A DNA stretch of 64,000 bases. Source: Smithellaceae bacterium. GTDB lineage: Bacteria > Desulfobacterota > Syntrophia > Syntrophales > Smithellaceae. Shown piece after piece: positions 4,252 to 26,965 of the stretch. The translations under genes were made by a program, and so were the position numbers. Position 1 is the stretch's first letter; each line of letters opens with the position of its first letter. Where the stretch lies: positions 14 through 64,013 of the forward strand of contig DAOTJI010000003.1 of the NCBI GenBank assembly GCA_035448625.1. Reading direction: 5' to 3'. The notes under the pieces were generated by a model that saw only the letters and a list, made by a program, of their open reading frames with translations, searched no databases and had not been told where the DNA came from.

Positions 4252-4298
4252 AAAGGCGTTCCTTATTTTTTTGAAAGGCGTTCCCGGAACGGGGAACG
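4252..4298. repeat. Direct and inverted repeat array (AAAGGCGTTCC twice, GGAACG twice) in the DUF362/polyferredoxin intergenic gap
   Basis: AAAGGCGTTCC occurs at 4252-4262 and 4274-4284, 22 bp apart. Inverted GGAACG copies lie at 4286-4291 and 4293-4298. CGTTCCC(4279-4285)/GGGAACG(4292-4298) can form a hairpin. Confidence 0.5.
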
Positions 4299-4382
4299 GT
4301 CCTGCCGGCCGCGGGCAAGGTTTTTATTGAATACCTGGTCCGATGACGAAATGCGGCCTGCGTAAACGGGGCCGTTCCTGCC

Positions 4383-5339: not shown

Positions 5340-5508
5340 ATTTCCCGCCCGCCTCGAATGGTTTAGGGACAAACATATCAGGCGGTTAAATCATATGGAA
5401 AAACAGAAGATGTGTCAATGAAAAACGGTTGGCCGCGGACTGCTCAAAGAAATTTATCTGTTCAAAGTTTTGCGGATCGTATAAAATCCAAGAAAAAAGG
5501 GGAGGGTC

Positions 5509-6404: not shown

Positions 6405-6462
6405 ATCTCCGAACCGGCACGTGAAGATTTTTTTCCCGGGCAGGAGAGGGATGAATAAAATG

Positions 6463-6501
6463 AGCCACACTGCTTCATCCGGACGGCAGTGTGGCTTTTT
6501 T
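6463..6501. terminator. Bidirectional intrinsic terminator between convergent operons
   Basis: 11-bp stem AGCCACACTGC (6463-6473) / GCAGTGTGGCT (6487-6497), followed by a T run on the + strand and preceded by an A-rich tract (T-rich when read on the - strand). Confidence 0.75.
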
Positions 6502-6511
6502 AAAAAAGGAT

Positions 6512-7510
6512 TTATTTCATGGCCTGTTCAACCGCGACGGCGACGGCAACCGAAGCGCCGACCATCGGATTGTTTCCCATGCCGATGAGTCCCATCATCT
6601 CCACATGCGCGGGGACGGAGGATGATCCGGCGAACTGAGCGTCCGAGTGCATGCGCCCCATGGTGTCGGTCATGCCGTAGGAAGCGGGGCCGGCGGCCAT
6701 GTTGTCCGGATGCAGCGTTCTTCCCGTTCCCCCGCCGGAGGCCACGGAGAAGAATTTCCGGCCGGCCAGAATACATTCTTTCTTGTAAACGCCCATCACC
6801 GGATGCTGAAACCGCGTCGGGTTGGTGGAGTTGCCCGTGATGGCCACATCCACGCCTTCCATGTGCATGATGGCTACGCCTTCGCGCACGTCGTCCGCAC
6901 CGTAGCACCGCACGGCTGCGCGTTCCCCTTTGGAATACGCCTTTTCCTTGACCACGGAAACCTTTCCCGTCTTGTAGTCAAAGGCCGTTGCCACATGCGT
7001 GAAGCCATTGACGCGGGCGATAATGTGCGCCGCATCCTTGCCCAGACCGTTCAGGATGACCCGCAAAGGTTTCTTGCGCGCCTTGTTGGCGGACTTGGCA
7101 AGCCCGATGGCGCCTTCCGCAGCCGCAAAGGATTCATGACCCGCGCAAAAAGCGAAGCAGGCGGTCTCTTCCCGAAGCAGCATGGAGGCGAGATTCCCGT
7201 GGCCGATGCCCACCTTGCGGTCATCGGCGACGGAACCGGGGATGCAGAAGGACTGAAGCCCTTCGCCCAGCGTTTCGGCGATGTCCGCAGCGTATTTCTG
7301 TCCCTTTTTAATGGCGACGGCCGCGCCGACAAGATAGGCCCATCCGGCGTTTTCAAATGAAATCGGCTGAATGTCCTTCACGATTTTCCGAACATCAAGG
7401 CCTTTCCCCATGCATATTTTTTCGGCTTCCTCCAACGAGGAAATGCCGTATTTGGCGAGAAAAGGAGTGATCTGGTTGATTCTTCTTTCGTATCCTTCAA
7501 ATAGTGCCAT
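6512..7510 (-). CDS. GGGtGRT family protein (uncharacterised)
   Basis: 332 aa containing the family-defining SGGGTGRTLHPDN motif. The length matches the family. Confidence 0.85.
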   Translation of the reverse strand: MALFEGYERRINQITPFLAKYGISSLEEAEKICMGKGLDVRKIVKDIQPISFENAGWAYLVGAAVAIKKGQKYAADIAETLGEGLQSFCIPGSVADDRKVGIGHGNLASMLLREETACFAFCAGHESFAAAEGAIGLAKSANKARKKPLRVILNGLGKDAAHIIARVNGFTHVATAFDYKTGKVSVVKEKAYSKGERAAVRCYGADDVREGVAIMHMEGVDVAITGNSTNPTRFQHPVMGVYKKECILAGRKFFSVASGGGTGRTLHPDNMAAGPASYGMTDTMGRMHSDAQFAGSSSVPAHVEMMGLIGMGNNPMVGASVAVAVAVEQAMK

Positions 7511-7521
7511 GGTAATACTCC

Positions 7522-8298
7522 TTATTCTTTTCTTGGATTAATGGTTTTGACGGCTTCGGCAAAGCGGCCGTAGGTCCCGGTGGCTTTGGCCAGCGCGGCG
7601 GCCGGGTCCATGCCTTTGGCGATATTGTCCATCATGACGCCCAGCTGGACAAATTTATAGCCGATGATTTCGTTGTCGGTGTCGAGACCGATTTCGGTTA
7701 CAAAGCCTTCCGCCATCTCCAGATAGCGGGGGCCTTTAGCTTTGGTGCCGTACATCGTGGCGATCACGCTGCGTAGTCCCTTGCCCAGGTCTTCCAGACC
7801 CGCGCCGATGGGAAGCCCGCCTTCGGAAAACGCGGTCTGCGATCGGCCGTACACGATCTGCAGAAAGATTTCCCTCATGGCCACGTTGATGGCGTCGCAG
7901 ACGAGGTCGGAATTCAGCGCTTCCAGAATGGTCTTGTTGGGTAAGATTTCGGCGGCCATGGCGGCGGAATGGGTCATGCCGGTGCAGCCGATCGTTTCCA
8001 CCAGCGCTTCTTCGATGATGCCGTTTTTTACATTCAGGGTCAGTTTGCAGGCTCCCTGCTGAGGCGCGCACCAGCCGACGCCGTGGGTCAGGCCGCTGAT
8101 ATCCTTGATTTCCTTTACCTGCGTCCATTTGCCCTCCTGCGGGATGGGGGCGGGGCCGTTCTTGGCGCCCTTGGCAACTACGCACATTTGTGCAACTTCA
8201 TGAGTTTGCTCCATAAAAACTCCATCTCCTTCCAATAAAATATTGCGGATAACCTCGGTTATCCGATTTGTTTTTTCGTTGAATGGGAAGATCTCCAT
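7522..8298 (-). CDS. IscU/NifU-N-like Fe-S scaffold-type protein
   Basis: It has Cys-containing motifs GWCAPQQGACKL, IGCTGMTHSAAMAAE and LVCDAINVA, reminiscent of the three IscU cysteines. It lies 11 nt upstream of the GGGtGRT gene. An alternative start at 8214 (MEQTHE) has a GGAG RBS. Confidence 0.65.
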   Translation of the reverse strand: MEIFPFNEKTNRITEVIRNILLEGDGVFMEQTHEVAQMCVVAKGAKNGPAPIPQEGKWTQVKEIKDISGLTHGVGWCAPQQGACKLTLNVKNGIIEEALVETIGCTGMTHSAAMAAEILPNKTILEALNSDLVCDAINVAMREIFLQIVYGRSQTAFSEGGLPIGAGLEDLGKGLRSVIATMYGTKAKGPRYLEMAEGFVTEIGLDTDNEIIGYKFVQLGVMMDNIAKGMDPAAALAKATGTYGRFAEAVKTINPRKE

Positions 8299-13036: not shown

Positions 13037-13113
13037 TGGTGGCGGTGCCTGGATTTGAACCAGGGACACTACGGATATGAGCCGTATGCTCTGACCAACT
13101 GAGCTACACCGCC
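13037..13113 (-). tRNA. tRNA with CAT anticodon (elongator Met, or Ile2 if lysidine-modified)
   Basis: The reverse complement is GGCGGTGTAGCTCAGTTGGTCAGAGCATACGGCTCATATCCGTAGTGTCCCTGGTTCAAATCCAGGCACCGCCACCA, which folds as a cloverleaf. The anticodon loop is CTCATAT and the CCA is encoded. G1-C72 is paired, so it is not an initiator tRNA. Confidence 0.9.
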
Positions 13114-13180: not shown

Positions 13181-14932
13181 CTATTGCGGCATTTCCAGTT
13201 CATACACGACCAGAACGCTTCTTTCGCTCAGCGTCGCGCCGACGGACTGGACCAGCGCCAGAACAATTTCCGGCTTGCCGTCATTGTCGACGTCCTTGAA
13301 GCAGTAATCCGCGACATAACCGTTGATTTTCTTGGTCCGCCAGTTCTCCGCCATACCGAGGCCGTCCCACTCCAGATTGTAGATTTCGCTCGAGGTGAAA
13401 AGCTTCAGGTTTTTGAAGATGCGGCCCACCGACGACAGGTTTTTGACGATAATCATTTCCTTTTTGCCGTCGTTGTTCGTATCAAACATTAAAATCCGCA
13501 GGTTGGCGAAGGCGCTGTCCTCCTGCGTGGCTTCCGTGGACTGCTGTTTCTGCTTGTCCACGTTGTCGATGTAGTTGTTGCTGCCGCCGTACTGGGAGTC
13601 GCTTCTCCAGATCAGTTCATCGGGGCTGAAGCCGAAGGAGAAAATCCGGCTCAGCGGCTTGGTCGTCGGCGTAATGATGCACAGGTAGTCCAGGTCGTCC
13701 AGCGCGATGATTTTTTCACCGGTTCCCGGGCCCAGGGAGTCGATGGTCATCCCGTAAATGGACAATCCCACGGGGATTTTTTGTTTATCCCCGGGGACGT
13801 ATTTCCCGTCGCGCCAGACCATTTCATAAATCTGGGTATCGAAAACCTTGCCGCCCATGCCGTCGTGAAAGCTTCCCATGCCGTAGGTCTGCCCCAACAG
13901 CATAGGCGTTCCCGAGGACGGGGTGATGACTCTCAGGAAATAACGGATGTCGGAGGCGATCGTTTTGTAGTCGCCGTTTTCATACTGGAGCACAAAGGAG
14001 TTGAGCACCCGGTCGTTGAGAGACGTCACGATGATCTCCGGCGTGCCGTCCTTGTTGATGTCCGCCACGTCCACAGAGATGTATTTATGGTAGGATTTGC
14101 CCTTGATCTGTTTGAGGAGCTGCAGATTGTCTTTGGTCTTCAGGTAAATGTATACGTTGTGGCGGTCGATGATGACCACTTCGTTTACGCCGTCCTTGTT
14201 GACGTCGCCGATGTCCATCCCGTTGAATTCCGTTTTGAACTGCTGGCTCATCCAGAAGCCCTTCTTGCGATCGAGCGGGTCGGACGAGTTGATGAATTCC
14301 GCGTTGATCATCGACGTCAGGGTCCCCTTGCCTTTGCCGGATTTCATGCCGGCGATGATCTGCGCTTCCCGTGACGCAACGGAAACGGGCGGGGGCGCGG
14401 GGGCGCCGGCTCCCGCCTGAGGCGCCGCGGACGCGACAGCCGGCGGGGTTTGTGCAACGGTCCCCCCGGTAATATGCCGGACAATGCGCTGCGAAAAATC
14501 GTTGATTTTGGGAATGACTTCATCAAGGGTCTGGGATTGGGAGAAAATGCCGACGTCCGATTTTCCCCCGGCGATATCGATCAGCTTGCCGTCGATGCTG
14601 ATGCTTTTTCCGATTTTGGTGATGCTTCCCCAGACCACGTAGTCGGACTTCAACTGCCGGCCGATGCTTTGAACATCCGACAAATTCAATTCTTTTCCAC
14701 CCGTTTTTTTCAGGATGTCCGAAACCACGTCTTTGCGCGTCACCTCGATCTGGTCGGCCCCGGAGAGGCGGCTCGTCAGCATGTCGTTGATTCCCTGCCG
14801 CACATATTCAATGTTTTCAGCGCTGTTGAGCGCGAAGGGCAGGACGGTCACCGTGTATTTTTCCTTTGCCATGAGGGTCGCCGCGACCAGCAGCACGGCG
14901 AGAAGGCAAAATCCGATCATTGCTTTTTTCAT
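13181..14932 (-). CDS. Secreted FG-GAP/VCBS-repeat protein with an N-terminal CsgG/TolB-N-like domain
   Basis: The signal peptide is MKKAMIGFCLLAVLLVAATLMA (ATG at 14932, GGAGAA RBS). An Ala/Pro-rich linker follows. There are four Ca-binding-type repeats: DVNKDGVNEVVI, DINKDGTPEIIV, DTNNDGKKEMII and DVDNDGKPEIVL. Confidence 0.7.
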   Translation of the reverse strand: MKKAMIGFCLLAVLLVAATLMAKEKYTVTVLPFALNSAENIEYVRQGINDMLTSRLSGADQIEVTRKDVVSDILKKTGGKELNLSDVQSIGRQLKSDYVVWGSITKIGKSISIDGKLIDIAGGKSDVGIFSQSQTLDEVIPKINDFSQRIVRHITGGTVAQTPPAVASAAPQAGAGAPAPPPVSVASREAQIIAGMKSGKGKGTLTSMINAEFINSSDPLDRKKGFWMSQQFKTEFNGMDIGDVNKDGVNEVVIIDRHNVYIYLKTKDNLQLLKQIKGKSYHKYISVDVADINKDGTPEIIVTSLNDRVLNSFVLQYENGDYKTIASDIRYFLRVITPSSGTPMLLGQTYGMGSFHDGMGGKVFDTQIYEMVWRDGKYVPGDKQKIPVGLSIYGMTIDSLGPGTGEKIIALDDLDYLCIITPTTKPLSRIFSFGFSPDELIWRSDSQYGGSNNYIDNVDKQKQQSTEATQEDSAFANLRILMFDTNNDGKKEMIIVKNLSSVGRIFKNLKLFTSSEIYNLEWDGLGMAENWRTKKINGYVADYCFKDVDNDGKPEIVLALVQSVGATLSERSVLVVYELEMPQ

Positions 14933-15153
14933 TTTATTCTCCGTGGTTGACGGTTTTTCAATATGGAAACCGGAAGTGTTTCTAGCATTTAAAAATTGAT
15001 AATTCAAGGTGGTTTTCATCGCGGTGTAAGGCAAAACAGAAGAGGGCGGTATTCACCGCCATGAAAAATCGTATTGTCAGACCAGCGCCTTTCATGTAAA
15101 GAAAACAACTTACATTGCCGGATATTTTCAGGCTGGGGAAAGATGGAGGATAA

Positions 15154-16443
15154 ATGGAAAAAGCAACATTGACGCTCAATGGGATGACGTATGAACTGCC
15201 GATCATCGAAGGGACCGAGAACGAGAAGGGCATCGATATCTCCCGGTTACGTCAGGATACGGGACTGATCACGCTGGATGTCGGTTACCAGAACACCGGT
15301 TCCTGCATTTCCGCCATTACCTATATCGACGGAGACAAGGGAATTTTACGATACCGCGGGATTCCCATCGAAGAGCTCGCTGAAAAAGCAAGCTTTACCG
15401 AAGTGGCCTACCTCCTCATCTACGGGGAGCTTCCCAACCGGGAGCAGCAGCAGCTATTTTCCCAGCGGCTGACGCAAAACTCCATGATTCACGAGGAAAT
15501 GCTGCGTTTCTTCGACGGCTTCCCGCCGACCGCCCATCCGATGGCGATTCTGGCGACCATGGTAAACTCCATGTCCGTGTACTATACGGACTATTTCACG
15601 GAAGATTTCAGGGCCGAGACGTTCGATCTGATGGCCGCCTCGCTCATTTCCCGAATTCGCACGATTGCCGCCTATTCCTACAAGCACAGCATCGGCCACC
15701 CGCATGTTTATCCCAAACGGGATCTCAAATACGCGTCTAATTTTCTCTATATGATGTTCGATTCTCCGGTGAATCCCTATGTGCCGGATCCGGATATTGA
15801 AAAGGCGCTCTCCACGCTCATGATCCTTCACGCCGACCATGAGCAGAACTGCAGTACGTCCACCGTGCGATTGGTGGGCAGCAGCATGGCCAATCTGTAT
15901 GCGTCGATCTGCTCCGGCATTTGCGCACTGTGGGGCCCGCTGCACGGGGGCGCCAACCAGAAGGTGATCGAGATGCTGGAAGAAATCCAAAGCAGCAAGC
16001 GGTCGATTCAAAGCTGCATCGATTCGGCCAAGGACAAGGCGAGCAAGTTTCGGCTTTTCGGCTTCGGCCACCGGGTGTACAAGAACTACGATCCACGCGC
16101 GCGGATTCTGAAGCAATACTGCGAAACCCTCTTTCAAAAGCACAATTACAAGGATCCGCTGATCAATATCGCCATGGAACTGGAAGAAGCGGCTCTGAAG
16201 GATGATTTTTTCGTCCAGCGAAAGCTGTATCCCAATGTCGACTTTTACAGCGGTATTCTGTACCGGATGATCGGCATTCCCACCAATATGTTCACGGTCA
16301 TGTTTGCCATCGGCCGCCTGCCCGGCATGATCGCGCAGTGGAAGGAAATGCACGACACCGTTCCGCTGAAAATCGGCCGTCCGCGCCAGATCTATACGGG
16401 CAGCAACCTTCGGCACTACATCCCGATGGACGAGCGGGGATAG
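15154..16443 (+). CDS. gltA: Citrate synthase
   Basis: 429 aa with typical citrate synthase motifs (HADHEQNCSTS, GPLHGGAN, GFGHRVYK). GGAGG RBS. Confidence 0.9.
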   Translation: MEKATLTLNGMTYELPIIEGTENEKGIDISRLRQDTGLITLDVGYQNTGSCISAITYIDGDKGILRYRGIPIEELAEKASFTEVAYLLIYGELPNREQQQLFSQRLTQNSMIHEEMLRFFDGFPPTAHPMAILATMVNSMSVYYTDYFTEDFRAETFDLMAASLISRIRTIAAYSYKHSIGHPHVYPKRDLKYASNFLYMMFDSPVNPYVPDPDIEKALSTLMILHADHEQNCSTSTVRLVGSSMANLYASICSGICALWGPLHGGANQKVIEMLEEIQSSKRSIQSCIDSAKDKASKFRLFGFGHRVYKNYDPRARILKQYCETLFQKHNYKDPLINIAMELEEAALKDDFFVQRKLYPNVDFYSGILYRMIGIPTNMFTVMFAIGRLPGMIAQWKEMHDTVPLKIGRPRQIYTGSNLRHYIPMDERG

Positions 16444-16473
16444 CGGAAAAAAACGCGTGGAGAAAATTTTTTC

Positions 16474-16502
16474 TTGACTTTTGCCGGCCGATTGCCTATA
16501 CG
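16474..16502 (+). promoter_or_regulatory. Sigma70-like promoter of the leader/transporter operon
   Basis: TTGACT (16474-16479), a 17-nt spacer, then TATACG (16497-16502). Confidence 0.5.
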
Positions 16503-16521
16503 CGCCCTAAAAGGACAAACT

Positions 16522-16608
16522 ATGATGAAAAAACAGATCACCGTTCAGACATTCCGCTTTTTCTTTTTTAGCTTTATCGGCGACAGGGTCTGCCTGGACG
16601 TATCATGA
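16522..16608 (+). CDS. Phe-rich leader peptide (28 codons), candidate attenuation leader
   Basis: AAGGA lies 6 nt upstream of the ATG. The ORF encodes MMKKQITVQTFRFFFFSFIGDRVCLDVS, with 6 Phe in 8 consecutive codons. It is too short for the ORF track. Confidence 0.6.
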   Translation: MMKKQITVQTFRFFFFSFIGDRVCLDVS

Positions 16609-16629
16609 CCTGGCATCAAGGGGAATGAA

Positions 16630-16666
16630 CCGTGGGCGGATGAAAATTTGCCCACGGTTTTTTTTT
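16630..16666 (+). terminator. Intrinsic terminator (attenuator terminator and/or gltA terminator)
   Basis: CCGTGGGC (16630-16637) / GCCCACGG (16650-16657), a 12-nt loop, then nine consecutive T (16658-16666). Confidence 0.85.
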
Positions 16667-16705
16667 ATTTGAAAATCGCAAATTCAAAAACAGGGGGATC
16701 AGATC

Positions 16706-17914
16706 ATGAAGACATGCGGCAGGATTTTACTTGCGTTGGGCATTCTGGCGCTGACGGCCATGGCGGGGCAGGCCATGGCCCAGACCAAAATCATCAAGGT
16801 CGGGGCGGCCATCAATCTGACGGGGCCCGCGTCGACCTGGGGGCAGTTTCACGAAAAAGGGCAGCGGGACTACTTCCGCTACGTCAATGAGGTGAAAGGC
16901 GGCGTGTCCGGCTACAAAATTGAAATGATCACCATGGACACCGCCTACAAGGTGCCGGAGGCGCAGGCCGCCGTTCAAAAATTCATTCTGCAGGATAAAG
17001 TAGACATGATCGCCACATGGGGCGCGGGCGAAGGCCTGGCCGCGAAGCCCATCGTCCAGAAATACAAGATTCCGACGATCAACTATTCCACCAGCTGGGA
17101 GATTTTGGAAAAGCCCGTGGACTACATGTACCTGCCGTTCGGCAGTTATAAGATGGATTGTCAGGCGGTTCTTGAATACATCAAAGCCGTCCACACGGGT
17201 CCGGAGGCGCCGAAAGTCGGCCTGTTGACCTACAACAACGCTTACGGGCGTTCGATTCACGCGCCCAGCCGGGAATATGCGGCAAAACTGGGAATTGAGC
17301 TGGTGGCCGTCGAGGAATTTCCGCCCAGGACCGTCGACCTCAATACGGAGCTTCTCCGCCTGCAGAAAAAAGGCGCCCGGTACGTTTTCATCCAGATGCT
17401 GCCCTCGACCATCATCACCGCCTTCAAAAGCGCGGACCGCATCCAATACAATCCGTTGTTTCTGGGGACCTGGACGTCCACCGACCCCGATTTCTTCAAG
17501 ATGGGCAAAGGCCTCATTCGCGACCGCCTGGTGATGCAGTTCCCCGGCGGTTTGCCCTCGGACAAATCTAAAGGCATGGACGTGATGAGGGAATTGTGGA
17601 GGCGCTACAAAACGGTCAAGAGCTTTGACGCATCCTACTGGGAGGGCGTCGTCGTCGGCATGATCATGGAAAGGGCGTTTCAGCGAGCCTACGAAAAATC
17701 AAAGGCAATCAATCCCCAGACCGTCAACGCCGCGCTGGAATCCATGAAGAACGAAGATTTCGGCGGACTGGTGCCTGCGGTGAGCTTCTCAAAAGACAGT
17801 CACGAGGCCTCCTTCACCGCGCGCATGGTCAAAGTGCTGGAAAACGGGACGTATATTCCCTTGACAAATTTCTATGTTCCGGGAAAAGACAAAATCAAAT
17901 TGCTGAAGAAATAA
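16706..17914 (+). CDS. LIV-family (type I PBP) ABC transporter substrate-binding protein
   Basis: 402 aa with a signal peptide and a Leu/Ile/Val-binding-protein-family fold pattern. GGGGGA RBS. Confidence 0.85.
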   Translation: MKTCGRILLALGILALTAMAGQAMAQTKIIKVGAAINLTGPASTWGQFHEKGQRDYFRYVNEVKGGVSGYKIEMITMDTAYKVPEAQAAVQKFILQDKVDMIATWGAGEGLAAKPIVQKYKIPTINYSTSWEILEKPVDYMYLPFGSYKMDCQAVLEYIKAVHTGPEAPKVGLLTYNNAYGRSIHAPSREYAAKLGIELVAVEEFPPRTVDLNTELLRLQKKGARYVFIQMLPSTIITAFKSADRIQYNPLFLGTWTSTDPDFFKMGKGLIRDRLVMQFPGGLPSDKSKGMDVMRELWRRYKTVKSFDASYWEGVVVGMIMERAFQRAYEKSKAINPQTVNAALESMKNEDFGGLVPAVSFSKDSHEASFTARMVKVLENGTYIPLTNFYVPGKDKIKLLKK

Positions 17915-17957: not shown

Positions 17958-17993
17958 GAAAAACGCGGTGTCGCAACACGCGTCGAGGTGTTC

Positions 17994-18824
17994 ATGAAAG
18001 CATTCCGCAGCCGTCCGTCGATCATGGTGAACCGGCCCCAGGAGGATAAGAAAGCCGAACTGGAGGTTCGCAATCTGCGTCTGAGCTTCGGCGGCGTCGT
18101 GGCGGTTCGGGACGTGGATCTGTCCGTCCGCACCGGTGAGCTGATGGCGGTGATCGGCCCCAACGGAGCGGGGAAGACCAGTCTGCTCAACTGCATCACC
18201 GGCTTCTACCGCCCTCAGCAGGGCAGCATTCTTTTCAACGGCCGGGATATTACGCATCTGCACACGCACCAGCTGGTCGGCATCGGCATCGGCCGAACGT
18301 TTCAGAACATCGAACTCTTTCCGGGCATGACGGTGCTGGCCAACCTGACGCTGGCCCGTCACATCCACTGCCGGTACAGCTTTTGGCGTTCTTTCCTCTA
18401 TACGCCGTCCGTCCGCGAAGAGGAAATCCGCCACCGCCGGATTCTCGAAGAAATCATCGACTTTCTGGAGATGCAGTCCATCCGTAAGCAAACCGTCGGC
18501 TCCCTGCCGTACGGCATGATGAAGCGAGTGGAACTGGGGCGGGCGCTGGCGCTGGAGCCGCGGCTTTTGATTCTGGATGAACCGTTCGCGGGAATGAACC
18601 TGGAAGAAAAAGAGGATATGGTGCGATTTCTGCTGGAGCTGAACGGTCGATGGGGCCTCACGATGGTGCTGGTGGAGCATGACATGTCCATCGTCATGAG
18701 CATTTCCCGGCGCGTCATGGTGCTGAACTTCGGCGAGAAACTGGGGGAGGGCACTCCCGCGGAAATCGGCGCCAATCCAGAGGTCATTAAGGCGTATCTC
18801 GGCGATGCACAGTCGCCGTCATAA
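17994..18824 (+). CDS. ABC transporter ATP-binding protein (LivG-like)
   Basis: Walker A GPNGAGKTS. The ATG at 17994 has a GAGG RBS; the track used the GTG at 17988. Confidence 0.85.
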   Translation: MKAFRSRPSIMVNRPQEDKKAELEVRNLRLSFGGVVAVRDVDLSVRTGELMAVIGPNGAGKTSLLNCITGFYRPQQGSILFNGRDITHLHTHQLVGIGIGRTFQNIELFPGMTVLANLTLARHIHCRYSFWRSFLYTPSVREEEIRHRRILEEIIDFLEMQSIRKQTVGSLPYGMMKRVELGRALALEPRLLILDEPFAGMNLEEKEDMVRFLLELNGRWGLTMVLVEHDMSIVMSISRRVMVLNFGEKLGEGTPAEIGANPEVIKAYLGDAQSPS

Positions 18825-18840: not shown

Positions 18841-20769
18841 TTGGAAAAGGCAACCCCGGATTCAATCAAACCAAACCAGCTTACGCTGCCGCAGCTTCTG
18901 GCGGTCAACGCCGAAAAATACGGTGACACGAAGACGGCCATCCGGGAAAAAGCCTTCGGCATCTGGCAGAAGTACACCTGGAGCGACTACTTTCATTATA
19001 TGAAAACAACGGCGGCCGGCTTTGCCTCCCTGAACCTGAGGAGAGGCGACAATCTGTGCATGATCGTCAACAATTCCCCGGAATGGCTCTTTTCCGAACT
19101 GGCCGCGCACGCGCTGGGCGCGACGTCGCTCAATCTCTTCACTTCCTCCATCGCCGAAGAGCTGGCCTTTTCCATCGGGCGTGTCCGCTCCCCCCTGGTC
19201 GTTGTGCAGGACCAGGAGCAGGTGGACAAGCTTCTGGAAATGAGGGACAAGCTGACGCGGGTTCAATACGTCGTGTACGTCGATCCCACCGGCATGACGT
19301 CGTATGAAAACGACCCCTGGCTCATCAGCTACGCGGCGCTTCTGGAGCGGGGCGAAAAATACCTGGCGGATCATTCGGGATTCATCGAGGAGGAAATCGG
19401 CAAAGGAAGGCCGCGGGACATTGCGGTCATGATCCAGACCTCCGGCACCACCGGCGTACCGAAAATCGCCATGCTGTCGCACCGGAACCTGACCGCCATG
19501 GCTCTCCAGTGGATTGAGGCTTCGAACATTCAGCCGGAGGAAAACTGGATTTCCATGTCGCCGACGGCCTGGATCGTCGATCAGATGTGGGGCATGGGCG
19601 TGGCGCTCGCCGGCGCCATGACCATGAACTTTCCGGAAACGCCGGAAACCGTTCTGGAGGACTTCCGGGATATCGGGCCTTCCATGCTGATCACGGCCTC
19701 ACGCTTCTGGGAAGACATGGCCTCCCGTATTCGCGTGAAAATCACCGATGCGGGCTGGCTCAAAAGGAAGCTCTTTTATCTTGGGGAAAGAGTCGGTAAA
19801 ACGGTCGTCGAAAAAAAATTGCGCAAGGAAAGCATTTCCTGGCCGCTCGGTCTGTTGTACCGCTTCCTGACGCTCGCGATTTACAACCCTTTGCTGGACC
19901 GTCTGGGCTGTTCCCGTTTTCACAGTGCGTTTACCGGCGGCCACCCGATCAGTCCCGACGTGATCGGCTTCTTCCGGGCAATCGGACTGAACCTGAAGCA
20001 GTGCTACGGACTCACGGAATCCTGCGGGATTTTCCAGATTCAGCCCGACGACGAGGTCAAGCTGGAGACCGTCGGCAAGCCGCTTCCGAATACGAGGGTC
20101 AGGCTGGCCGAGGATCAGGAAGTGCTGGTCCAATCAGAGGCCAATTTCTCCGGCTATTACAACGACTACCAGTCCACGGAGGCGGCGTTTGAAAACGGAT
20201 GGCTGAAAACCGGCGACGCGGGCTATATCGACGAAGACGGCCATCTGCTGATCATCGGGCGCAAGGAAGACATCATTCGCAACAAGAGCGGCGACGCTTT
20301 TTCGCCGGACTTCATCGAAACCAGGCTCAAGTTCAGCCCCTACATCAAGGAGGCGGTCACCTTCGGCGAGGCGCGGCCTTACATCACGGCGATGATCAAC
20401 ATCGATCTGGGCAATGTCGGCAGCTGGGCGGAAGAAAGGATGATTCCCTACACGACCTATATGGATCTGTCCCAGCAGAAGGCCGTAGAGGAGATGATTT
20501 TAAAGGAAGTCCGCGAGGTGAACCGCCAGCTTCCCGACGTGATGAAGATCAGAAAATTCGTTCTGCTCTATAAGCTTTTGGATGCGGACGACGACGAACT
20601 GACGCGCACCGGAAAAGTGCGCAGGCGATTCGTCTACGGTCTGTATATCAAAATCATTGAGGCGATGTACGGCGGGCTGCAAAGTGTGCCGGTGACGGGA
20701 AAAATCCGCTACCGCGACGGACGGATCGGCGAGATCGAAACCACCATCAACATTATCACCGTGGATTGA
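18841..20769 (+). CDS. AMP-forming acyl-CoA ligase (FadD/COG1022-like) embedded in the ABC operon
   Basis: 642 aa with the AMP-binding motif IQTSGTTGVPK and later TGD..DEDGHLLIIGRKED. TTG start with an AAGGGTG RBS. Confidence 0.8.
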   Translation: MEKATPDSIKPNQLTLPQLLAVNAEKYGDTKTAIREKAFGIWQKYTWSDYFHYMKTTAAGFASLNLRRGDNLCMIVNNSPEWLFSELAAHALGATSLNLFTSSIAEELAFSIGRVRSPLVVVQDQEQVDKLLEMRDKLTRVQYVVYVDPTGMTSYENDPWLISYAALLERGEKYLADHSGFIEEEIGKGRPRDIAVMIQTSGTTGVPKIAMLSHRNLTAMALQWIEASNIQPEENWISMSPTAWIVDQMWGMGVALAGAMTMNFPETPETVLEDFRDIGPSMLITASRFWEDMASRIRVKITDAGWLKRKLFYLGERVGKTVVEKKLRKESISWPLGLLYRFLTLAIYNPLLDRLGCSRFHSAFTGGHPISPDVIGFFRAIGLNLKQCYGLTESCGIFQIQPDDEVKLETVGKPLPNTRVRLAEDQEVLVQSEANFSGYYNDYQSTEAAFENGWLKTGDAGYIDEDGHLLIIGRKEDIIRNKSGDAFSPDFIETRLKFSPYIKEAVTFGEARPYITAMINIDLGNVGSWAEERMIPYTTYMDLSQQKAVEEMILKEVREVNRQLPDVMKIRKFVLLYKLLDADDDELTRTGKVRRRFVYGLYIKIIEAMYGGLQSVPVTGKIRYRDGRIGEIETTINIITVD

Positions 20770-20780
20770 GGAACCGGTTT

Positions 20781-21659
20781 ATGGATTTTTTTCTGCAACT
20801 GTTGGTGAACGGCGTCTGCATCGGACTGCTGTACGGCATTTCCGCGATGGGCTTCGTGATGATTTTCAAGGCATCCAGCGTGCTCAACTTCGCCCACGGC
20901 GAACTGCTGGCGCTGGGAGCCTTCTTTTTTCTCACCCTGGTCACCTGGGGGAAGATCCCCGTGCCGGCCGCGTTCGTGCTGACGCTGGCCGGATGTTTTC
21001 TGCTGGGATTTCTGATTGAAAAGTTTTTCCTGAGGCCGCTCATCGGCGAGAAGCTGATCTTTGTCATCATGCTGACGGTGGGGCTTGCCGCCATGTTCAA
21101 GGGCCTCATTCTGCTCATCTGGGGCGGCAATCTGCACACCTATCCGGAGTTTCTCCCTGAATCGCTGGAGTTTCATCTGGGGTCGATCTACATTGCGCCC
21201 GTGTATTCCGCCACGCTGATGATCAGCGTCGTGTTTCTGGTCCTCTTCGGCCTGTTTTTCAAGAAGTCGTCCCAGGGCATCTTCATGCGGTCGGTGGCGG
21301 ACAACCAGAAAGCGGCCCTGTCGCTGGGCGTTCACGTCCGCCGCGTTTTCGCGCTTTCCTGGGCGATTGCCGCAATGGTGGCCTGCATGAGCGGCATCGT
21401 TCTGGGCATCATCAACGGCGTGAATGTTCACGATCTGTCGGCCATCGGCCTGAAGGTCTTTCCCGTCGTGATTCTGGGAGGCCTGGACAGCATCGGCGGA
21501 GCCATCATCGGCGGCATCATCATCGGCCTTCTGGAAACCTTCACCGGCGGCTACCTGTCCCCGTCGTTGAGAGACGTGGTTCCCTATATCGTGCTGGTCT
21601 TCATCTTGATGGTGAAGCCTTACGGTCTGTTCGGCCTGGTGGAGATTGAAAGAGTGTAA
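20781..21659 (+). CDS. Branched-chain-type ABC transporter permease (LivH-like)
   Basis: Polytopic membrane ORF starting MDFFLQLLVNG, typical of the LivH family. Confidence 0.85.
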   Translation: MDFFLQLLVNGVCIGLLYGISAMGFVMIFKASSVLNFAHGELLALGAFFFLTLVTWGKIPVPAAFVLTLAGCFLLGFLIEKFFLRPLIGEKLIFVIMLTVGLAAMFKGLILLIWGGNLHTYPEFLPESLEFHLGSIYIAPVYSATLMISVVFLVLFGLFFKKSSQGIFMRSVADNQKAALSLGVHVRRVFALSWAIAAMVACMSGIVLGIINGVNVHDLSAIGLKVFPVVILGGLDSIGGAIIGGIIIGLLETFTGGYLSPSLRDVVPYIVLVFILMVKPYGLFGLVEIERV

Positions 21660-21660
21660 T

Positions 21661-22731
21661 ATGAAGAAACCATCGTTTCATCCCTGCGGGAATTTCCGCG
21701 AAACCTACGCCGAGGAGCTGGCGATTTTCGACACCTGGTTCGGCCGGGTGAGCCTGCTGGTCTTCCTGCTTCTGCTGTTCGGACTTGCGCCGTTTCTCCT
21801 GGACCGCTACCTGCTGTATATTCTGAACAGCATCGGGATCATGGCGATTGCCGCCGTCGGCCTCAATATTCTGATCGGCTACACCGGGCAGATCTCGCTG
21901 GGACACGGCGCGTTTTTCGGCGTGGGCGCCTACGCGGGGGCGATTCTGGCCACGCGCCTGAACCTGCCGTTCTTCGTCTGCATCCCCGCCGCGGGATTGA
22001 TCACCGCCATGGTCGGCATGATTTTCGGCATTCCTTCAGGACGCCTCAAGGGGCTTTACCTGACGATCGCCACGCTGGCCGGCCAGTTCATCATCGAATA
22101 TGTTCTGATCCAGTGGGAAAGTCTGACCAAGGGAACGATGGGGATCACGCTGCCGGAGCCGCAGGTTCTGGGGATCAACATCGCCGGGGACAAGGCCTTT
22201 TTCTTTCTGATTTTCACCTGCCTGGTGTGCATGACCTGGTTTGCGGTCAACATCATGCGCAGCAAATACGGGCGGGCGTTCATCGCCATTCGTGACAACG
22301 ACCGCGCGGCGGAGGGGATGGGCATTCCGATTTTCCGCTACAAGCTTCTGTCATTTGCCATCAGCTCTTTTTACGCGGGTTTCGCCGGTTCCCTCTGGGC
22401 CTACTACATGGTCAGCATTACGACGGAGCCCTTCAACCTCGCGCTGTCCGTGGAATTCATCGCCATGGTCATCATCGGCGGCATGGGCAATATCCCCGGG
22501 GCGATTTTCGGCGCAACCTTCATCACGGTGTTGAACGAACTTTTGCGCTTCGCGACGGGCGCCCTGATGAACGTCGGATGGATTGCCGGACTGGGGCTGA
22601 ACATGGCGCCGCTTCGCGAATTTGTTTTCGGACTGGCGATTGTGCTGTTCATTTTACTGGAACCCAAGGGGCTGGCGGAGTTGTGGCGCATTGTGCGCTC
22701 CAGCTTCCGGCTCTGGCCGTTCTCGTATTAG
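21661..22731 (+). CDS. Branched-chain-type ABC transporter permease (LivM-like)
   Basis: Polytopic membrane ORF. The ATG lies 1 nt after the LivH-like stop. Confidence 0.85.
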   Translation: MKKPSFHPCGNFRETYAEELAIFDTWFGRVSLLVFLLLLFGLAPFLLDRYLLYILNSIGIMAIAAVGLNILIGYTGQISLGHGAFFGVGAYAGAILATRLNLPFFVCIPAAGLITAMVGMIFGIPSGRLKGLYLTIATLAGQFIIEYVLIQWESLTKGTMGITLPEPQVLGINIAGDKAFFFLIFTCLVCMTWFAVNIMRSKYGRAFIAIRDNDRAAEGMGIPIFRYKLLSFAISSFYAGFAGSLWAYYMVSITTEPFNLALSVEFIAMVIIGGMGNIPGAIFGATFITVLNELLRFATGALMNVGWIAGLGLNMAPLREFVFGLAIVLFILLEPKGLAELWRIVRSSFRLWPFSY

Positions 22732-22814: not shown

Positions 22815-23615
22815 ATGGGAGACATTCTTTTACAGCTCAACAATATTTCCGTTGTGTATTCCGACGTGATTCAGGTGCTCAAAGGCGTGTCGCTATCGGT
22901 TGCGCGCGGACATATCGTGTCGCTTCTCGGCAGCAACGGAGCGGGAAAAACCACGACACTCAAGGCGATTTCCGGCCTTTTGAAGCCGGAAAACGGGGAA
23001 GTCACCGACGGCGACATTATTTTCAACGGAGTGAACATTCAAAATCAAGCACCCGAATTCATCACCCGCCAGGGCGTCATTCAGGTGCTGGAAGGCCGCC
23101 AGCCTTTCAAATATCTGACCATCGAGGAAAATCTGCGCGTCGGAACCGCCACCCGGCCGGGCAAACCCTATAAAGAAGATCTCGAAATGGTTTATCGTTA
23201 TTTTCCGGCGCTGGTGAAAAGAAAGAAGGCGCTGGCCGGGTACTGCAGCGGCGGGGAGCTGCAGATGCTGGTCATCGGCCGGGCGCTGATGGCGCATCCG
23301 CAGCTTCTGATGCTGGACGAGCCTTCGCTCGGCCTTGCTCCGCTGGTGGTGCAGGAAATCTTCCGCATCATCCAGAAGATCAATGAAGAGCACGGGACTA
23401 CCATTGTCCTGGTGGAGCAGAACGCCAACATGGCGCTGCAGGTCGCGCATTACGGCTATGTGATGGAAAACGGCAAAATCGTCATGGAAGGCACGGCCCG
23501 CGAGCTTGCCGACAACCCGGATGTCAAAGAATTTTACCTGGGGCTGGCCGCCTCGGGTATCGCCAAATCCTATAAGGACGTCAAATCCTACCGCCGCCGC
23601 AAACGATGGTTGTAA
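22815..23615 (+). CDS. ABC transporter ATP-binding protein (LivF-like)
   Basis: Starts MGDILLQLNNISVVY, with Walker A GSNGAGKTT and signature SGGE. The track ORF from 22578 is an upstream extension. Confidence 0.85.
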   Translation: MGDILLQLNNISVVYSDVIQVLKGVSLSVARGHIVSLLGSNGAGKTTTLKAISGLLKPENGEVTDGDIIFNGVNIQNQAPEFITRQGVIQVLEGRQPFKYLTIEENLRVGTATRPGKPYKEDLEMVYRYFPALVKRKKALAGYCSGGELQMLVIGRALMAHPQLLMLDEPSLGLAPLVVQEIFRIIQKINEEHGTTIVLVEQNANMALQVAHYGYVMENGKIVMEGTARELADNPDVKEFYLGLAASGIAKSYKDVKSYRRRKRWL

Positions 23616-23628: not shown

Positions 23629-24882
23629 ATGAAACGGTTGTATGATGAAAAAGAAGCGTGGAGCGTCGAAGAAAGAAAATCCCGGCAGGACAGGCGTCTG
23701 TCGCGCATGGTGAGACTGGGCTATCGGAAGTCGGCCTCCCTGAAAAAGATGCTCGACGACCATCGCATCGATCCCGCCCGAATCCGGACCAGGGAGGACT
23801 TGGAAGCGCTGCCCGTCACCTCGCGGGAAAAACTGGTGGAAATGGAGATGCGCAAGCCGCCCTACGCGGGTCTGGAAAATCCTGACATCGCCGTCGACCG
23901 CATTTTTACGTCTCCGGGACCGGTTTATGAGCCGCATTTATCCGAGACGGATTATCTCTGGGCGCGCGCTTTTTTCGCGGCGGGCATCGGGCCGAAGGAC
24001 ATCGCGCTCAATGCCTTTTCCTATCATCTGGTGGCGGCCGGCCTCACGTTTCACAACGGCCTGCGCAAAGTCGGCGCGACGGTGGTTCCCTCCGGCACGT
24101 CTTCATCGCAGATTCAGGTTCAGCTCATCCACGACCTGAAAGTAACCGCCTATGTGGGGACACCGAGCTTTCTTATGTCCATCATCGAAAAATCCAGAGA
24201 AATTGGCTATGATTTCAAAAAGGATTTCCGGGTAAAGAAGGCATGCTTTGCCGCCGAGCCGCTCCTGCCTTCACTGAGAGAAAAATTTGAAAAAGAATTC
24301 GGCATCAGAACCTTCCAGATGTACGGCGCTACGGAAGTAGGGGACGTGGCGTATGAATGCAAGGCGAAATCCGGCTGGCACATCTGCGAGGAAACGATTG
24401 TGGAAATCGTCGATCCGGCAACGGGCAAAAACGTTGAGCCGGGTACACTGGGCGAAGTGGTTGTGACGCGCCTCAACGATATTTTCTTTCTGCTGCGCTT
24501 CGGAACTGGCGATTTATCCCGGCTCGTCACCAAAAAATGCTCCTGCGGACGGACTTCTTATCGTTTAGCGGGCATTGCGGGAAGGATAGGCGATGCGGTA
24601 AAGGTGAGGGGGCTTTTCATCGCTCCCAGCCAGTTGAAGCTCCTTTCCGCCAGATTCGATAATATTCTCCTTCAGGCCGTGGTCGGCCGCAAAGGCCATG
24701 AAGACGTTTTAACGCTGCGCGTCGATAATTCGAATACACTAGTAAATACGGATAAATGGAAGAATAACTTCAAGAAGATATTTAAGGAATTGTGCACGGT
24801 CCGAATCGACGTTCTGGAAGTTGTGGAAAAAGGCGGAATCAAGCCGGACCAGAAGATGATCGTCGATTGCCGGACGTGGTAG
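23629..24882 (+). CDS. Phenylacetate-CoA ligase family (PaaK-like) adenylate-forming enzyme
   Basis: Strong GGGGAGG RBS. PaaK/F390-synthetase-like motifs include SGTSS, YGATE and GTGDLS. Confidence 0.8.
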   Translation: MKRLYDEKEAWSVEERKSRQDRRLSRMVRLGYRKSASLKKMLDDHRIDPARIRTREDLEALPVTSREKLVEMEMRKPPYAGLENPDIAVDRIFTSPGPVYEPHLSETDYLWARAFFAAGIGPKDIALNAFSYHLVAAGLTFHNGLRKVGATVVPSGTSSSQIQVQLIHDLKVTAYVGTPSFLMSIIEKSREIGYDFKKDFRVKKACFAAEPLLPSLREKFEKEFGIRTFQMYGATEVGDVAYECKAKSGWHICEETIVEIVDPATGKNVEPGTLGEVVVTRLNDIFFLLRFGTGDLSRLVTKKCSCGRTSYRLAGIAGRIGDAVKVRGLFIAPSQLKLLSARFDNILLQAVVGRKGHEDVLTLRVDNSNTLVNTDKWKNNFKKIFKELCTVRIDVLEVVEKGGIKPDQKMIVDCRTW

Positions 24883-25216
24883 ACGACATTATATTTTTGC
24901 CGAGGCGATACGCGTCGATCGTCGAGCCGAGCCACAGCAATAAAATCACAATCACCAGACCCACTGCGAGATTCAGGTCGATTGCCTTGAGCGCACTCTC
25001 CATGCTTAGGAGACCTCCGGCCGTCCCGGCGCCTCGCGATAATGCCTCCCGGACCATCAGAAGGGCGACCTGAAAAATCATCCAGGCCAGAACCAGCGTT
25101 GCAGTCGCCGCCGGCACCAGAAAAGCAAGGCCTCTCCCATATCGTTTCAAATAAATCTGTCCGCCGCCCGGAATGAGAAGAAAACTGAACAGGGCGGCTC
25201 TGGTCGCTTGATCCAT
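24839..25216 (-). CDS. Small membrane protein (hypothetical)
   Basis: 125 aa with 3 predicted TM segments and a PGGGQIYLKRYG motif. It lies 9 nt downstream of recJ. Its 3' end overlaps the convergent PaaK-like gene by 44 nt. Confidence 0.45.
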   Translation of the reverse strand: MDQATRAALFSFLLIPGGGQIYLKRYGRGLAFLVPAATATLVLAWMIFQVALLMVREALSRGAGTAGGLLSMESALKAIDLNLAVGLVIVILLLWLGSTIDAYRLGKNIMSSTTSGNRRSSSGPA

Positions 25217-25225
25217 GCCGATTCC

Positions 25226-26965
25226 TCAGGCAACGATGGCCGCGTCCCTGATTTTAAGCTGAACGTCGGATGAACCGTTCCAGTAGTTGATCTGCGGCGA
25301 GAAAACCACGTCGAAGCTGGCCTGGTTGATCGCGCCCAGATATTTGCCCATGCCGAACCAAATAGCCTGGTGGGACGCGCTGTCGTCCACCACGCGCATT
25401 TTGAGGTGATTGTTGCCGACAATGACGGGGGAAGACGCCCTGATATTCCTGGTGCACAGCACCGGTTCGGGATTTTCACTGCCGAAGGGCGCGAGCATGG
25501 ACATCTGCCGGATCAGGTCGAGGCTGATGTCCTGCAGGCGGCATTCCGCGTCGATCAGGGTCTGGGAAACCATTTCCGAGGATTGCACCGAATTGCGGAT
25601 AATTTCGTCCAGCATGCAGGCGAATTCATCGATGTCGTCTTCCTTGATGGAAATGCCCGCCGCCCGGTAGTGGCCGCCGTAGGACAAGAGCAGCGGCGCG
25701 CACTGCTGCAGGCCTTTGTGGATGTTGAAATCGGAGACGCTGCGGCCGGAACCTTTGCCCACGCCGTCCTTGAGGCTGATGACGAAGGTCGGACGGCTGA
25801 AGAGATCCACCAGGCGCGAGGCCACGATGCCCACAACCCCGGGGTGCCATCTTTCGGAGGAAAAGACCAGCGCGTTGATGTTTTCCAGGTCGGGCTTGGC
25901 GCCGAGCTTTTCCAGGATTTCGTTCAGAATGTCTTTTTCCATGGCCTGCCGTCTGCGGTTGTGCAAATCCAGCTTCTCCGCGAGCGGCCGGGCTTCTTCC
26001 ATCGTTTCCGCCAGCAGAAGCTCGACGGCATCTAGCGGCGAAGCGATTCTTCCCGCCGCGTTGATGCGGGGGATCAGGCAGAAGGACGCTTTGAAGGAGT
26101 CGATGAGCTGTCCGTCAATGCCGCTGACTTCCTTGAGCGCTTTGATTCCGGGGCGTCTGCCTTCCGTGATCAGATCCAGGCCGATTCTGGCAAAGATGCG
26201 GTTTTCATTCAGAAGCGGTGCGATGTCTCCAATGGTTCCCAGGGCAACGACATCCAGAAATTCTTTCAGGTTCGGATATTCGGCGTTTTTCCAGAAGCCT
26301 TCCTTGCGCAACGTTCCGCGAAGCGCGATCAGAAAATTGAAGGCGATGCCCACACCGGCCAGATGTTTGAAGGGAAAAGAACAGTCGGCGCGGTTGGGAT
26401 TGATGCAGGCGGCGGCGGGGGGGAGCTGATCACCGATTTCATGATGGTCCAGCACGATCGTATCGATACCCACGGATTGGGCGTAGGCGATGGGTTCGAT
26501 GTCGGAGATTCCGCAATCCACGGTGACGATCAGTTTTACATTCTTTTGTCTGAACCGGTCGATGACCGGAATCTTCAGTCCGTAGCCTTCCTGAACCCGG
26601 TCGGGAATGTAATAGGAGACGCGACCGGTCAACTGTTTGATGAATTTGTACAGGATAACAACGGAAGTAATTCCGTCCGCGTCGTAGTCGCCGTAAATGA
26701 CGATATCTTCGCCGTCGTAAATCGCCTTCAGCAACCGGCTGACCCCTTTTTTCATGTCCTGCATCAGAAAAGGGCTGTGCAGGTCGTTGAGGGAAGGGTG
26801 CAGATAGCGGTGTGCGTCTTCCACGCTTCCGACGCGCCGGTTCAGGATCAACTGGGAAATAATCGGGTGGATGCCGAATTCCCTGACCAGTGATTCTTCT
26901 ATGATTTTAGGGCCGGAACCTTTGATTTTCCATTGTGTTACCGGCAGCTGTCCGTGTTCATTCAT
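25226..26965 (-). CDS. recJ: Single-stranded-DNA-specific exonuclease RecJ
   Basis: 579 aa with DHH-family motifs GDYDADGITS, VDCG and LDHHE. Confidence 0.9.
   Translation of the reverse strand: MNEHGQLPVTQWKIKGSGPKIIEESLVREFGIHPIISQLILNRRVGSVEDAHRYLHPSLNDLHSPFLMQDMKKGVSRLLKAIYDGEDIVIYGDYDADGITSVVILYKFIKQLTGRVSYYIPDRVQEGYGLKIPVIDRFRQKNVKLIVTVDCGISDIEPIAYAQSVGIDTIVLDHHEIGDQLPPAAACINPNRADCSFPFKHLAGVGIAFNFLIALRGTLRKEGFWKNAEYPNLKEFLDVVALGTIGDIAPLLNENRIFARIGLDLITEGRRPGIKALKEVSGIDGQLIDSFKASFCLIPRINAAGRIASPLDAVELLLAETMEEARPLAEKLDLHNRRRQAMEKDILNEILEKLGAKPDLENINALVFSSERWHPGVVGIVASRLVDLFSRPTFVISLKDGVGKGSGRSVSDFNIHKGLQQCAPLLLSYGGHYRAAGISIKEDDIDEFACMLDEIIRNSVQSSEMVSQTLIDAECRLQDISLDLIRQMSMLAPFGSENPEPVLCTRNIRASSPVIVGNNHLKMRVVDDSASHQAIWFGMGKYLGAINQASFDVVFSPQINYWNGSSDVQLKIRDAAIVA

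Follow-up and report, generated by a model that had tools for sequence, protein, structure and literature searches.

This study analyzed a 64,000-nucleotide (nt) stretch of a Smithellaceae contig (the window) and concentrated on the 262-nt gap that, in the window sequence, separates gltA from a gene encoding a Peripla_BP_6 substrate-binding protein. The gap most probably carries a ribosome-mediated leader-peptide transcription attenuator that senses charged phenylalanine transfer RNA (tRNA-Phe) in front of an operon for an ATP-binding cassette (ABC) uptake system and coenzyme A (CoA) ligases, a conclusion drawn from the sequence and its conservation. In most relatives, tRNA-Tyr is probably sensed as well because a tyrosine (Tyr) codon is near-universal in the run of phenylalanine (Phe) codons. 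A preliminary description of this DNA had proposed a Phe attenuator from promoter-like hexamers, a Shine-Dalgarno sequence, a 28-codon open reading frame (ORF), and a terminator with nine T residues, and all of these elements were found again at the following positions.

16474-16502, plus strand: putative sigma-70-like promoter, with -35 TTGACT at 16474-16479, a 17-nt spacer, and -10 TATACG at 16497-16502.
16511-16515, plus strand: Shine-Dalgarno sequence AAGGA of the leader ORF, 6 nt 5' of the ATG at 16522.
16522-16608, plus strand: leader ORF of 28 codons and a TGA stop (16606-16608), translated as MMKKQITVQTFRFFFFSFIGDRVCLDVS.
16541-16550, plus strand: region 1, the 5' arm of the putative anti-antiterminator or pause hairpin 1:2 (CCGUUCAGAC pairing in the window), paired with 16591-16600 in both the minimum free energy and the centroid folds.
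16552-16575, plus strand: regulatory codon run with 6 Phe codons among 8 (TTC CGC TTT TTC TTT TTT AGC TTT).
16588-16600, plus strand: region 2, GUCUGCCUGGACG, able to pair with region 1 or region 3.
16603-16628, plus strand: inner hairpin that contains the leader stop codon (UCAU-GA-CC...GG-AA-AUGA), -7.6 kcal/mol, z = -2.5.
16627-16666, plus strand: intrinsic terminator from a terminator scan, formed by region 3 (16627-16641) and region 4 (16646-16660) with a U9 tract (16658-16666) behind them.

To examine the conservation of these elements among orthologous loci, a check that the preliminary description had suggested, we scanned a genome collection with the substrate-binding protein. The scan returned 80 loci, all from metagenome-assembled genomes (MAGs) or isolates of Smithella, Smithellaceae, or "Syntrophaceae" with 77-92% identity. 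The results revealed that a promoter-leader-terminator unit of approximately 260 nt was present once in each of 79 of the 80 loci (nhmmer profile, E = 1e-38 to 1e-73). In L034, the remaining locus, the upstream DNA extends for only 100 nt. The hexamers, the Shine-Dalgarno sequence and ATG, the Phe-rich ORF, the antiterminator, and the terminator were conserved together in these 79 Smithellaceae loci, and substrate-binding protein orthologues at 77-92% identity lay downstream of the leader in all of them. The counts given below refer to the alignment of these 79 leader loci (A1). The unit was also found on two metagenome contigs; when metagenomes were searched with the pattern GTCTGCCTG-N25-50-CCGTGGGC, these 2 were the true family members among the 120 matches listed, and the rest were mostly random. 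A protein search with the substrate-binding protein gave 120 relatives, all Smithellaceae and at least 84% identical, among the matches listed.

The alignment retained the leader as a reading frame. An in-frame ATG ORF with a common TCA-TGA end was present in 76 of the 79 loci, and the length from the aligned ATG column to the stop was 81, 84, 87, or 90 nt, all multiples of three, in 76 of 79. Frame 0 was free of stops in 77 loci, whereas frame +1 was open in only 1 and frame +2 in none. The ATG occupied the aligned start column in 67 loci, with nearby in-frame ATGs in most of the others, and a purine-rich (A)GAGG(T) block preceded it at A1 columns 16-20. The length classes differed by whole-codon, frame-preserving duplications (FY, SF), and the N-terminal coding part was freely variable yet open. 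The leader ORF has already been called in public annotations, as a "hypothetical protein" or without a name.

These reading-frame data bear on the possibility that the locus is an RNA-only cis-regulator, that is, a riboswitch-like or protein-binding attenuator in which a factor other than the ribosome chooses between the antiterminator (2:3) and the terminator (3:4) and the ORF is a by-product of U-rich RNA. Such a regulator would account for a nucleotide invariance that exceeds what a peptide requires (TTTTTTAGCTTTA, GGTCTGCCTG, TCATGACC, and AATGAACCGTGGGCAG), for the strong bias toward TTT at synonymous sites, and for a small AGCU/GGCU hairpin inside the codon run, which showed CG-to-UA covariation in 10 sequences. 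However, it is unlikely: all four length classes preserve the frame and the other two frames are closed, the Shine-Dalgarno sequence and ATG were conserved, the variable N-terminal region never gained a stop, and invariance is equally expected where one segment must pair with two partners. Database searches gave no RNA family for it either. Across the whole window, Rfam returned no family at gathering score except tRNA (tRNA-Met, 13037-13113), and a permissive scan of 16400-16760 (E <= 10) returned no leader family, no Phe_leader, and only chance-level matches (to a Giardia snoRNA, to the trpB motif with E = 5, and, through terminator-like features, to the ylbH and L20 leaders). Neither scan matched an aptamer or T-box model that would indicate a T-box or metabolite riboswitch.

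The codon content of the leader pointed to Phe as the sensed amino acid. The leaders contained on average 29.3 residues, of which 6.05 were Phe and 1.57 Tyr, and Phe made up 20.6% of leader residues, compared with 4.4% in 18 window genes. In 76 of 78 sequences, the nine-codon stretch up to and including the last Phe codon held 4-7 Phe codons, and in 65 of 78 it held one or more Tyr codons; the clade of the window has Phe at positions where most other leaders have Tyr. The leader was the sole ORF in the 64-kilobase (kb) window that combined an enrichment for a single amino acid with a terminator behind it near a gene start, and no further unit of a leader-like ORF and a terminator was found there. 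Together with the conservation in 79 of 80 loci, this speaks against a chance arrangement. Phe was encoded by TTT and TTC in a ratio of 402:58 in the leaders versus 790:679 in the substrate-binding protein genes, and TTTTTTAGCTTTA was almost invariant at A1 columns 77-98 (16555-16575 in the window). The TTT bias and the invariance of the run are only partly accounted for by the AGCU/GGCU hairpin and by CUUUU:AAGG pairing.

Conservation of the peptide could also reflect a function of its own. The peptide is well conserved (..QA..FFYFFSF..KVCL..S) and hydrophobic with basic ends, and peTrpL shows that leader peptides are capable of functions in trans (PMC7298713). A hydrophobic micro-protein, acting as a membrane peptide or accessory factor and having its own terminator, would leave the transporter to constitutive leak-through or another promoter. 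We regard this as quite unlikely. The conserved QA and VCL residues are explained by RNA pairing because their codons are those of regions 1 and 2 (CAGGCAG and GUCUGCCUG), and the hydrophobic stretch spans just approximately 12-14 residues. Between the terminator and the transporter ATG, 40-60 nt are poorly conserved, and no promoter-like conservation was noticed in them, although no specific scan was made. The conserved 2:3 alternative would also be left unexplained. Searches of Pfam and NCBIfam with four leader peptides (E <= 10) yielded no match and no leader-peptide model.

The attenuator reading requires alternative RNA structures, and we examined the named structures by counting pairs in the alignment and by folding each sequence. 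The three conserved pairings 1:2, 2:3, and 3:4 are mutually exclusive, and their structures were stable in every family sequence when folded individually. Region 1 lies immediately 5' of the Phe run, and the Phe/Tyr run occupies the 5' side and the loop of hairpin 1:2. The family core of this hairpin, CAGGCAG (A1 columns 63-69) with CUGCCUG (columns 122-128), was paired in most sequences, and its mean free energy was -14.5 kcal/mol in the per-sequence folds. Neither this pairing (16541-16550 with 16591-16600) nor the stop-codon hairpin (16603-16628) had appeared in the preliminary description.

Region 2 ends 5 nt 5' of the leader stop codon (6 nt counting to the first base of the codon), and GGTCTGCCTG was nearly invariant across the 79 loci. 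The antiterminator joins region 2 (GUCUGCCUG) to the 5' arm of the terminator (CGUGGGCAGAU) through nine pairs, and in the window 16588-16600 pairs with 16631-16641. The preliminary description had proposed a modest antiterminator between 16588-16596 and 16633-16641; that pairing is real, but the structure is larger, extending over 16585-16643 at -22.6 kcal/mol (z = -2.65; one of 200 shuffles did equally well). The 2:3 helix was paired in 96.9% of alignment cells, compared with at most 46% when the register was slid, and the mean free energy of the family antiterminator was -18.8 kcal/mol. The inner stop-codon hairpin is enclosed by the 2:3 helix and is compatible with the terminator and antiterminator states alike; its two helices were paired in 95.3% and 91.8% of cells.

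The terminator was likewise present but differed in shape from the 8-nt arms and 12-nt loop initially proposed, because the scan called a longer stem of 15 pairs with a 4-nt loop at 16627-16660. The inner arms are CCGTGGGC (16630-16637) and GCCCACGG (16650-16657), and nine T follow at 16658-16666. The window terminator had a free energy of -24.2 kcal/mol (z = -6.6). It was kept in all 79 loci, with its helix paired in 91.2% of cells and a mean of -20.6 kcal/mol, and the complete terminated-state structure was paired in 84.1% of cells versus 27-40% in slid registers. Such invariance of the pairing segments is expected because region 2 has two partners to match (regions 1 and 3) and region 3 likewise two (regions 2 and 4), and this triple constraint may account for part of the TTT bias.

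Taken in order, these elements would operate as follows. RNA from the sigma-70-like promoter, with a putative start near 16509, would encode the 28-residue peptide, with the Phe run inside hairpin 1:2. When Phe is plentiful, the ribosome would reach the UGA at 16606-16608 and, on standard footprint sizes, would cover approximately 16591-16620, which comprises region 2 and half of the inner hairpin. With region 2 covered, region 3 would pair with region 4, and transcription would stop in the U9 tract, 39 nt 5' of the transporter ATG. If the leader is not translated, hairpin 1:2 would form and termination would again follow. When Phe-tRNA is scarce, the ribosome would stall with a Phe codon of 16552-16575 in the A site and would either cover region 1 or sit in the loop of 1:2, which would keep hairpin 1:2 from forming. 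Its 3' edge would then lie at approximately 16585-16587, and region 2, starting at 16588, would remain free to pair with region 3 once this is made. The resulting helix would enclose the stop-codon hairpin and block the terminator, and RNA polymerase would enter the seven-gene operon, which encodes an ABC importer and FadD-like and PaaK-like CoA ligases. The operon is predicted to be induced by Phe-tRNA scarcity.

Stalling could in principle depend on the nascent peptide instead, as in TnaC, with free Phe or an aromatic ligand, and not tRNA-Phe scarcity, causing the peptide to arrest the ribosome. The conserved C-terminal part and the fixed Ser-stop end recall arrest peptides. However, the conserved C-terminal codons coincide with the RNA pairing segments, antitermination needs a stall 5' of region 2, where the Phe run lies, and the terminator is intrinsic, unlike the Rho-dependent one of tna. 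A run of 4-7 identical codons is moreover the hallmark of a tRNA-charging mechanism (PMC3082878), and an arrest peptide is a highly improbable explanation of this leader.

Three leaders departed from the common arrangement. L018 (about 3776-3952) and L069 (about 3766-3943) have an F/Y-rich ORF (..FYFYFFSFRGSIGSA) that stops at a TGA inside region 2 (GCCUGA) and not at the common TCA-TGA. Both lack the aligned ATG and have one farther upstream, overlapping the place normally taken by the Shine-Dalgarno sequence; they retain FYFYFFSF, and the stop-codon hairpin is altered (AAGUUGA). The attenuator geometry may be different in this clade. In L005 (3781-3940), 19 nt are deleted; region 1 is lost and the leader frame is shifted, with region 2 and the terminator intact. 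The deletion could be a MAG assembly error or could mark a decayed variant that is constitutively terminating or de-repressed.

The genes adjacent to the leader and those relevant to its possible function were as follows.

15154-16443, plus strand: gltA, with stop TAG at 16441-16443 (Citrate_synt match, 5.5e-137).
16706-17914, plus strand: substrate-binding protein of a LIV/HAAT-type ABC importer (Peripla_BP_6), the first regulated gene (Pfam, NCBIfam, and PDB search).
17988-18824, plus strand: LivG-like ATPase (Pfam/NCBIfam).
18841-20769, plus strand: FadD11-like AMP-binding ligase of 642 residues, embedded among the transporter genes (Pfam/NCBIfam).
20766-21659, plus strand: LivH-like permease (Pfam/NCBIfam).
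21646-22731, plus strand: LivM-like permease (Pfam/NCBIfam).
22815-23615, plus strand: LivF-like ATPase (Pfam/NCBIfam).
23629-24882, plus strand: PaaK-family (phenylacetate-CoA-ligase-like) AMP-dependent ligase, the last gene of the operon (family matches).
40381-42744, plus strand: iorA and iorB, indolepyruvate:ferredoxin oxidoreductase (iorA, TIGR03336, 717.7 bits against a cut-off of 650.9; iorB, 243 bits against a cut-off of 230).

The synteny of the family separated the leader from gltA. The preliminary description had recognized that the hairpin might function only as the gltA terminator, in which case the hairpin and U9 tract would belong to the upstream gene and the F-rich ORF would be a coincidence. 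In favor of this, the 30 nt that separate the gltA stop from the -35 hexamer in the window showed no terminator belonging to gltA itself. A terminator serving gltA only was nevertheless rejected by synteny: gltA was the upstream gene in 31 loci, and a different neighbor was present in the 43 others with enough upstream DNA, divergent in at least 11 of them, with the leader and terminator kept in all. Among the non-gltA neighbors, a same-strand NtrC-like activator gene was usual; at least 11 loci had a divergent PilT-like gene, and the remainder had other genes. Because the leader stays with the operon while the upstream gene changes, the terminator belongs to the operon leader. The conserved ORF and a conserved promoter-like element between the upstream gene and the leader (TTGAC[T/A] in 79 of 79 loci, TATAnn in 78 of 79, spacer 17-18 nt) further make the coincidence extremely unlikely. 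In the lineage of the window, gltA read-through transcripts probably end at the leader terminator as well.

Downstream, the order of the substrate-binding protein, LivG-like, FadD-like, and LivH-like genes was the same wherever a locus was long enough to show it (71/71, 67/67, and 66/66). The full seven-gene operon, with the PaaK-like ligase last and a convergent recJ behind it, was found in L129 and L201-L203, as in the window.

Several further features of these neighborhoods were observed. The gene that replaces gltA in approximately 30 loci (e.g., L029-L031, L039-L048, and L057-L066) encodes a sigma-54-type NtrC-like activator (C-terminal ..AAELLKITFDSLRHRIEKLG..) and ends 40-300 nt 5' of the conserved promoter. 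Directly upstream of gltA in the window is a gene for an FG-GAP repeat protein (13181-15034, minus strand); in L201-L203, from a related Smithellaceae genome, genes for an ACT-domain protein and formate-tetrahydrofolate ligase lie 5' of gltA (6017-8231, plus strand). The palindrome TTTGAA-N9-TTCAAA (16668-16688, plus strand) is located between the terminator U-tract and the ribosome-binding site of the substrate-binding protein gene, in a stretch poorly conserved in other loci. At the other end of the operon, a 125-residue ORF (24839-25216, minus strand) without a Pfam match looks hydrophobic, overlaps the 3' end of the PaaK-like gene convergently by approximately 44 nt, and adjoins recJ (25226-26965, minus strand); the same 125-residue gene was called in L201-L203. 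A cluster at 2718-7510 (minus strand) encodes a multi-4Fe-4S protein, a DUF362 protein, and a GGGtGRT-family protein (PF14057, 628 bits).

We further considered what the operon may do. It encodes a complete HAAT/LIV importer set (Peripla_BP_6, two BPD_transp_2 permeases, and LivG- and LivF-like ATPases), with all components under the NCBIfam equivalog cut-offs, which indicates family membership only. The PaaK-like ligase was also under the equivalog cut-offs (220.3 versus 700 bits for NF041878 and 178.4 versus 646.3 for TIGR02155); its best solved relative was the phenylacetate-CoA ligase 4r1l (E = 1.6e-42), a family-level kinship only. When the substrate-binding protein was modeled with AlphaFold2 from a shallow alignment, the mean predicted local distance difference test (pLDDT) score was 52, too poor for comparison of the fold or ligand pocket. 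Because the attenuator would read the supply of charged tRNA-Phe (and probably tRNA-Tyr), the operon is expected to raise the supply of Phe (and Tyr), either by amino-acid import or by import of aryl acids.

One possible function, which we propose tentatively, is that Phe/Tyr starvation switches on the import and CoA activation of aryl acids (phenylacetate, 4-hydroxyphenylacetate, and perhaps phenylpropionate), followed by reductive carboxylation through IorAB and transamination to Phe or Tyr. This route is favored over amino-acid import because the PaaK-like ligase is co-transcribed; plain Phe/Tyr import is the simpler alternative but leaves two co-transcribed ligases unexplained. The window shares with the route from phenylacetate through phenylacetyl-CoA and phenylpyruvate to Phe a PaaK-family ligase and IorAB. 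For this route to operate, the ligase would have to use phenylacetate and IorAB would have to run reductively in Smithella. The iorAB genes lie 15.5 kb downstream of the PaaK-like gene, outside the operon; no leader ORF or terminator was found in front of iorA. The neighbors of iorAB are ybgC-like thioesterase and ybgF-like TPR genes on the 5' side and a DnaJ/CbpA-like gene on the 3' side. Literature searches returned nothing direct on phenylacetate use by Smithella. Elsewhere, Methanococcus maripaludis is described as using aryl acids as aromatic amino acid precursors via indolepyruvate oxidoreductase (Porat et al., as cited in PMC4162585), and rumen anaerobes as making Phe from phenylacetate (Allison 1965, as cited in PMC7356843). 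Phenylacetate and phenylpropionate occur in anaerobic digesters (PMC6368962), and several MAGs and contigs carry sample names from digesters and activated sludge, which suggests a digester habitat.

Several observations weigh against a Phe attenuator in front of an aromatic supply operon. FadD-type ligases in LIV-type operons elsewhere are linked to fatty acids, and the closest solved relative of the substrate-binding protein was 3lkb, a "probable branched-chain amino acid" binding protein (E = 1.6e-30), which is not decisive for the ligand. A consensus promoter scan of the window made no call at 16474-16502, because TATACG lacks the final T that is usually conserved in the -10 hexamer. Among the RNA structures, hairpin 1:2 of the window was no better than its shuffles (z = -0.45), and RNAalifold predicted only the terminator from the 79-sequence alignment. 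The structural case consists of conservation and pairing potential; compensatory changes were rare because the pairing segments are nearly invariant. The synonymous positions of the Phe run were frozen, and therefore some of the apparent peptide conservation is at the RNA level. Finally, all 79 loci belong to a single family, Smithellaceae (substrate-binding protein at least 77% identical), which limits the phylogenetic depth.

The leader was compared with known attenuators. On sequence grounds it appears to work like pheL-pheA, pheM-pheST, and trpL, yet it is not a member of those families, because no covariance model or hidden Markov model matched and because its length, lineage, and regulated genes are different. 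Its geometry matches the pheL model (PMC3082878): with pheL-pheA of Escherichia coli it shares a short ORF with an internal Phe run, a 2:3 antiterminator, and a 3:4 terminator with a U run, and it has a putative counterpart of the 1:2 pause structure and a predicted induction when Phe-tRNA is limiting. It has no detectable homology to pheL (Rfam Phe_leader), as no Rfam match was found at E <= 10 and no leader match in Pfam or NCBIfam; the Smithellaceae peptide has 28-31 residues, usually with a Tyr codon, whereas pheL has about 15, and an ABC importer with CoA ligases is regulated instead of pheA. The pheL element is essentially gammaproteobacterial, and the few possible examples outside that class precede pheA in Bacteroides and Desulfobacterium autotrophicum (PMC3082878). 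The trpL leader has the same four-segment logic, with termination when the leader is untranslated, but carries Trp codons and serves a biosynthetic operon. The pheM-pheST leader of E. coli is Phe-rich with one Tyr, similar in composition only to FFYFFSF, and has a terminator/antiterminator switch; unlike the Smithellaceae leader, it regulates phenylalanyl-tRNA synthetase. Its sequence presumably contains FRFFFYF. His-leader attenuators were reportedly predicted before histidine transporter genes by Vitreschak in 2004.

To confine leader attenuation to biosynthesis and synthetase operons would be too strong. In mgtCBR and mgtA of Salmonella, a transport operon has a short leader ORF, the translation of which chooses between alternative stem-loops (PMC3641672). 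These leaders signal Pro, Mg2+, and ATP, and the predicted transporter leaders signal His, none being associated with Phe or CoA ligases. In a list by Naville and Gautheret, 205 candidate attenuators precede ABC-transporter genes, with the sensor type unspecified (PMC2965389). Literature searches found no Phe leader before an operon for ABC uptake and acyl- or aryl-CoA ligases, and nothing on such an arrangement in Smithella.

The mechanism is a textbook one, but its target, an uptake system with two CoA ligases and not a biosynthetic or synthetase gene, is unusual. The leader belongs to a family absent from Rfam, Pfam, and NCBIfam, and it would extend attenuation by amino-acid-codon leaders to Syntrophales (Desulfobacterota), in which few such elements have been described. 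The attenuator would serve as a built-in functional label, indicating that the substrate of the operon is wanted when Phe-tRNA, and probably Tyr-tRNA, is low. This label yields a testable hypothesis, namely the salvage of aryl acids to aromatic amino acids in digester syntrophs that are uncultured or hard to grow. If true, it would be the first regulatory evidence for aryl-acid salvage as a starvation-induced anabolic pathway in syntrophic bacteria and would provide a functional assignment for the widespread operons of LIV-type ABC importers and acyl-CoA ligases.

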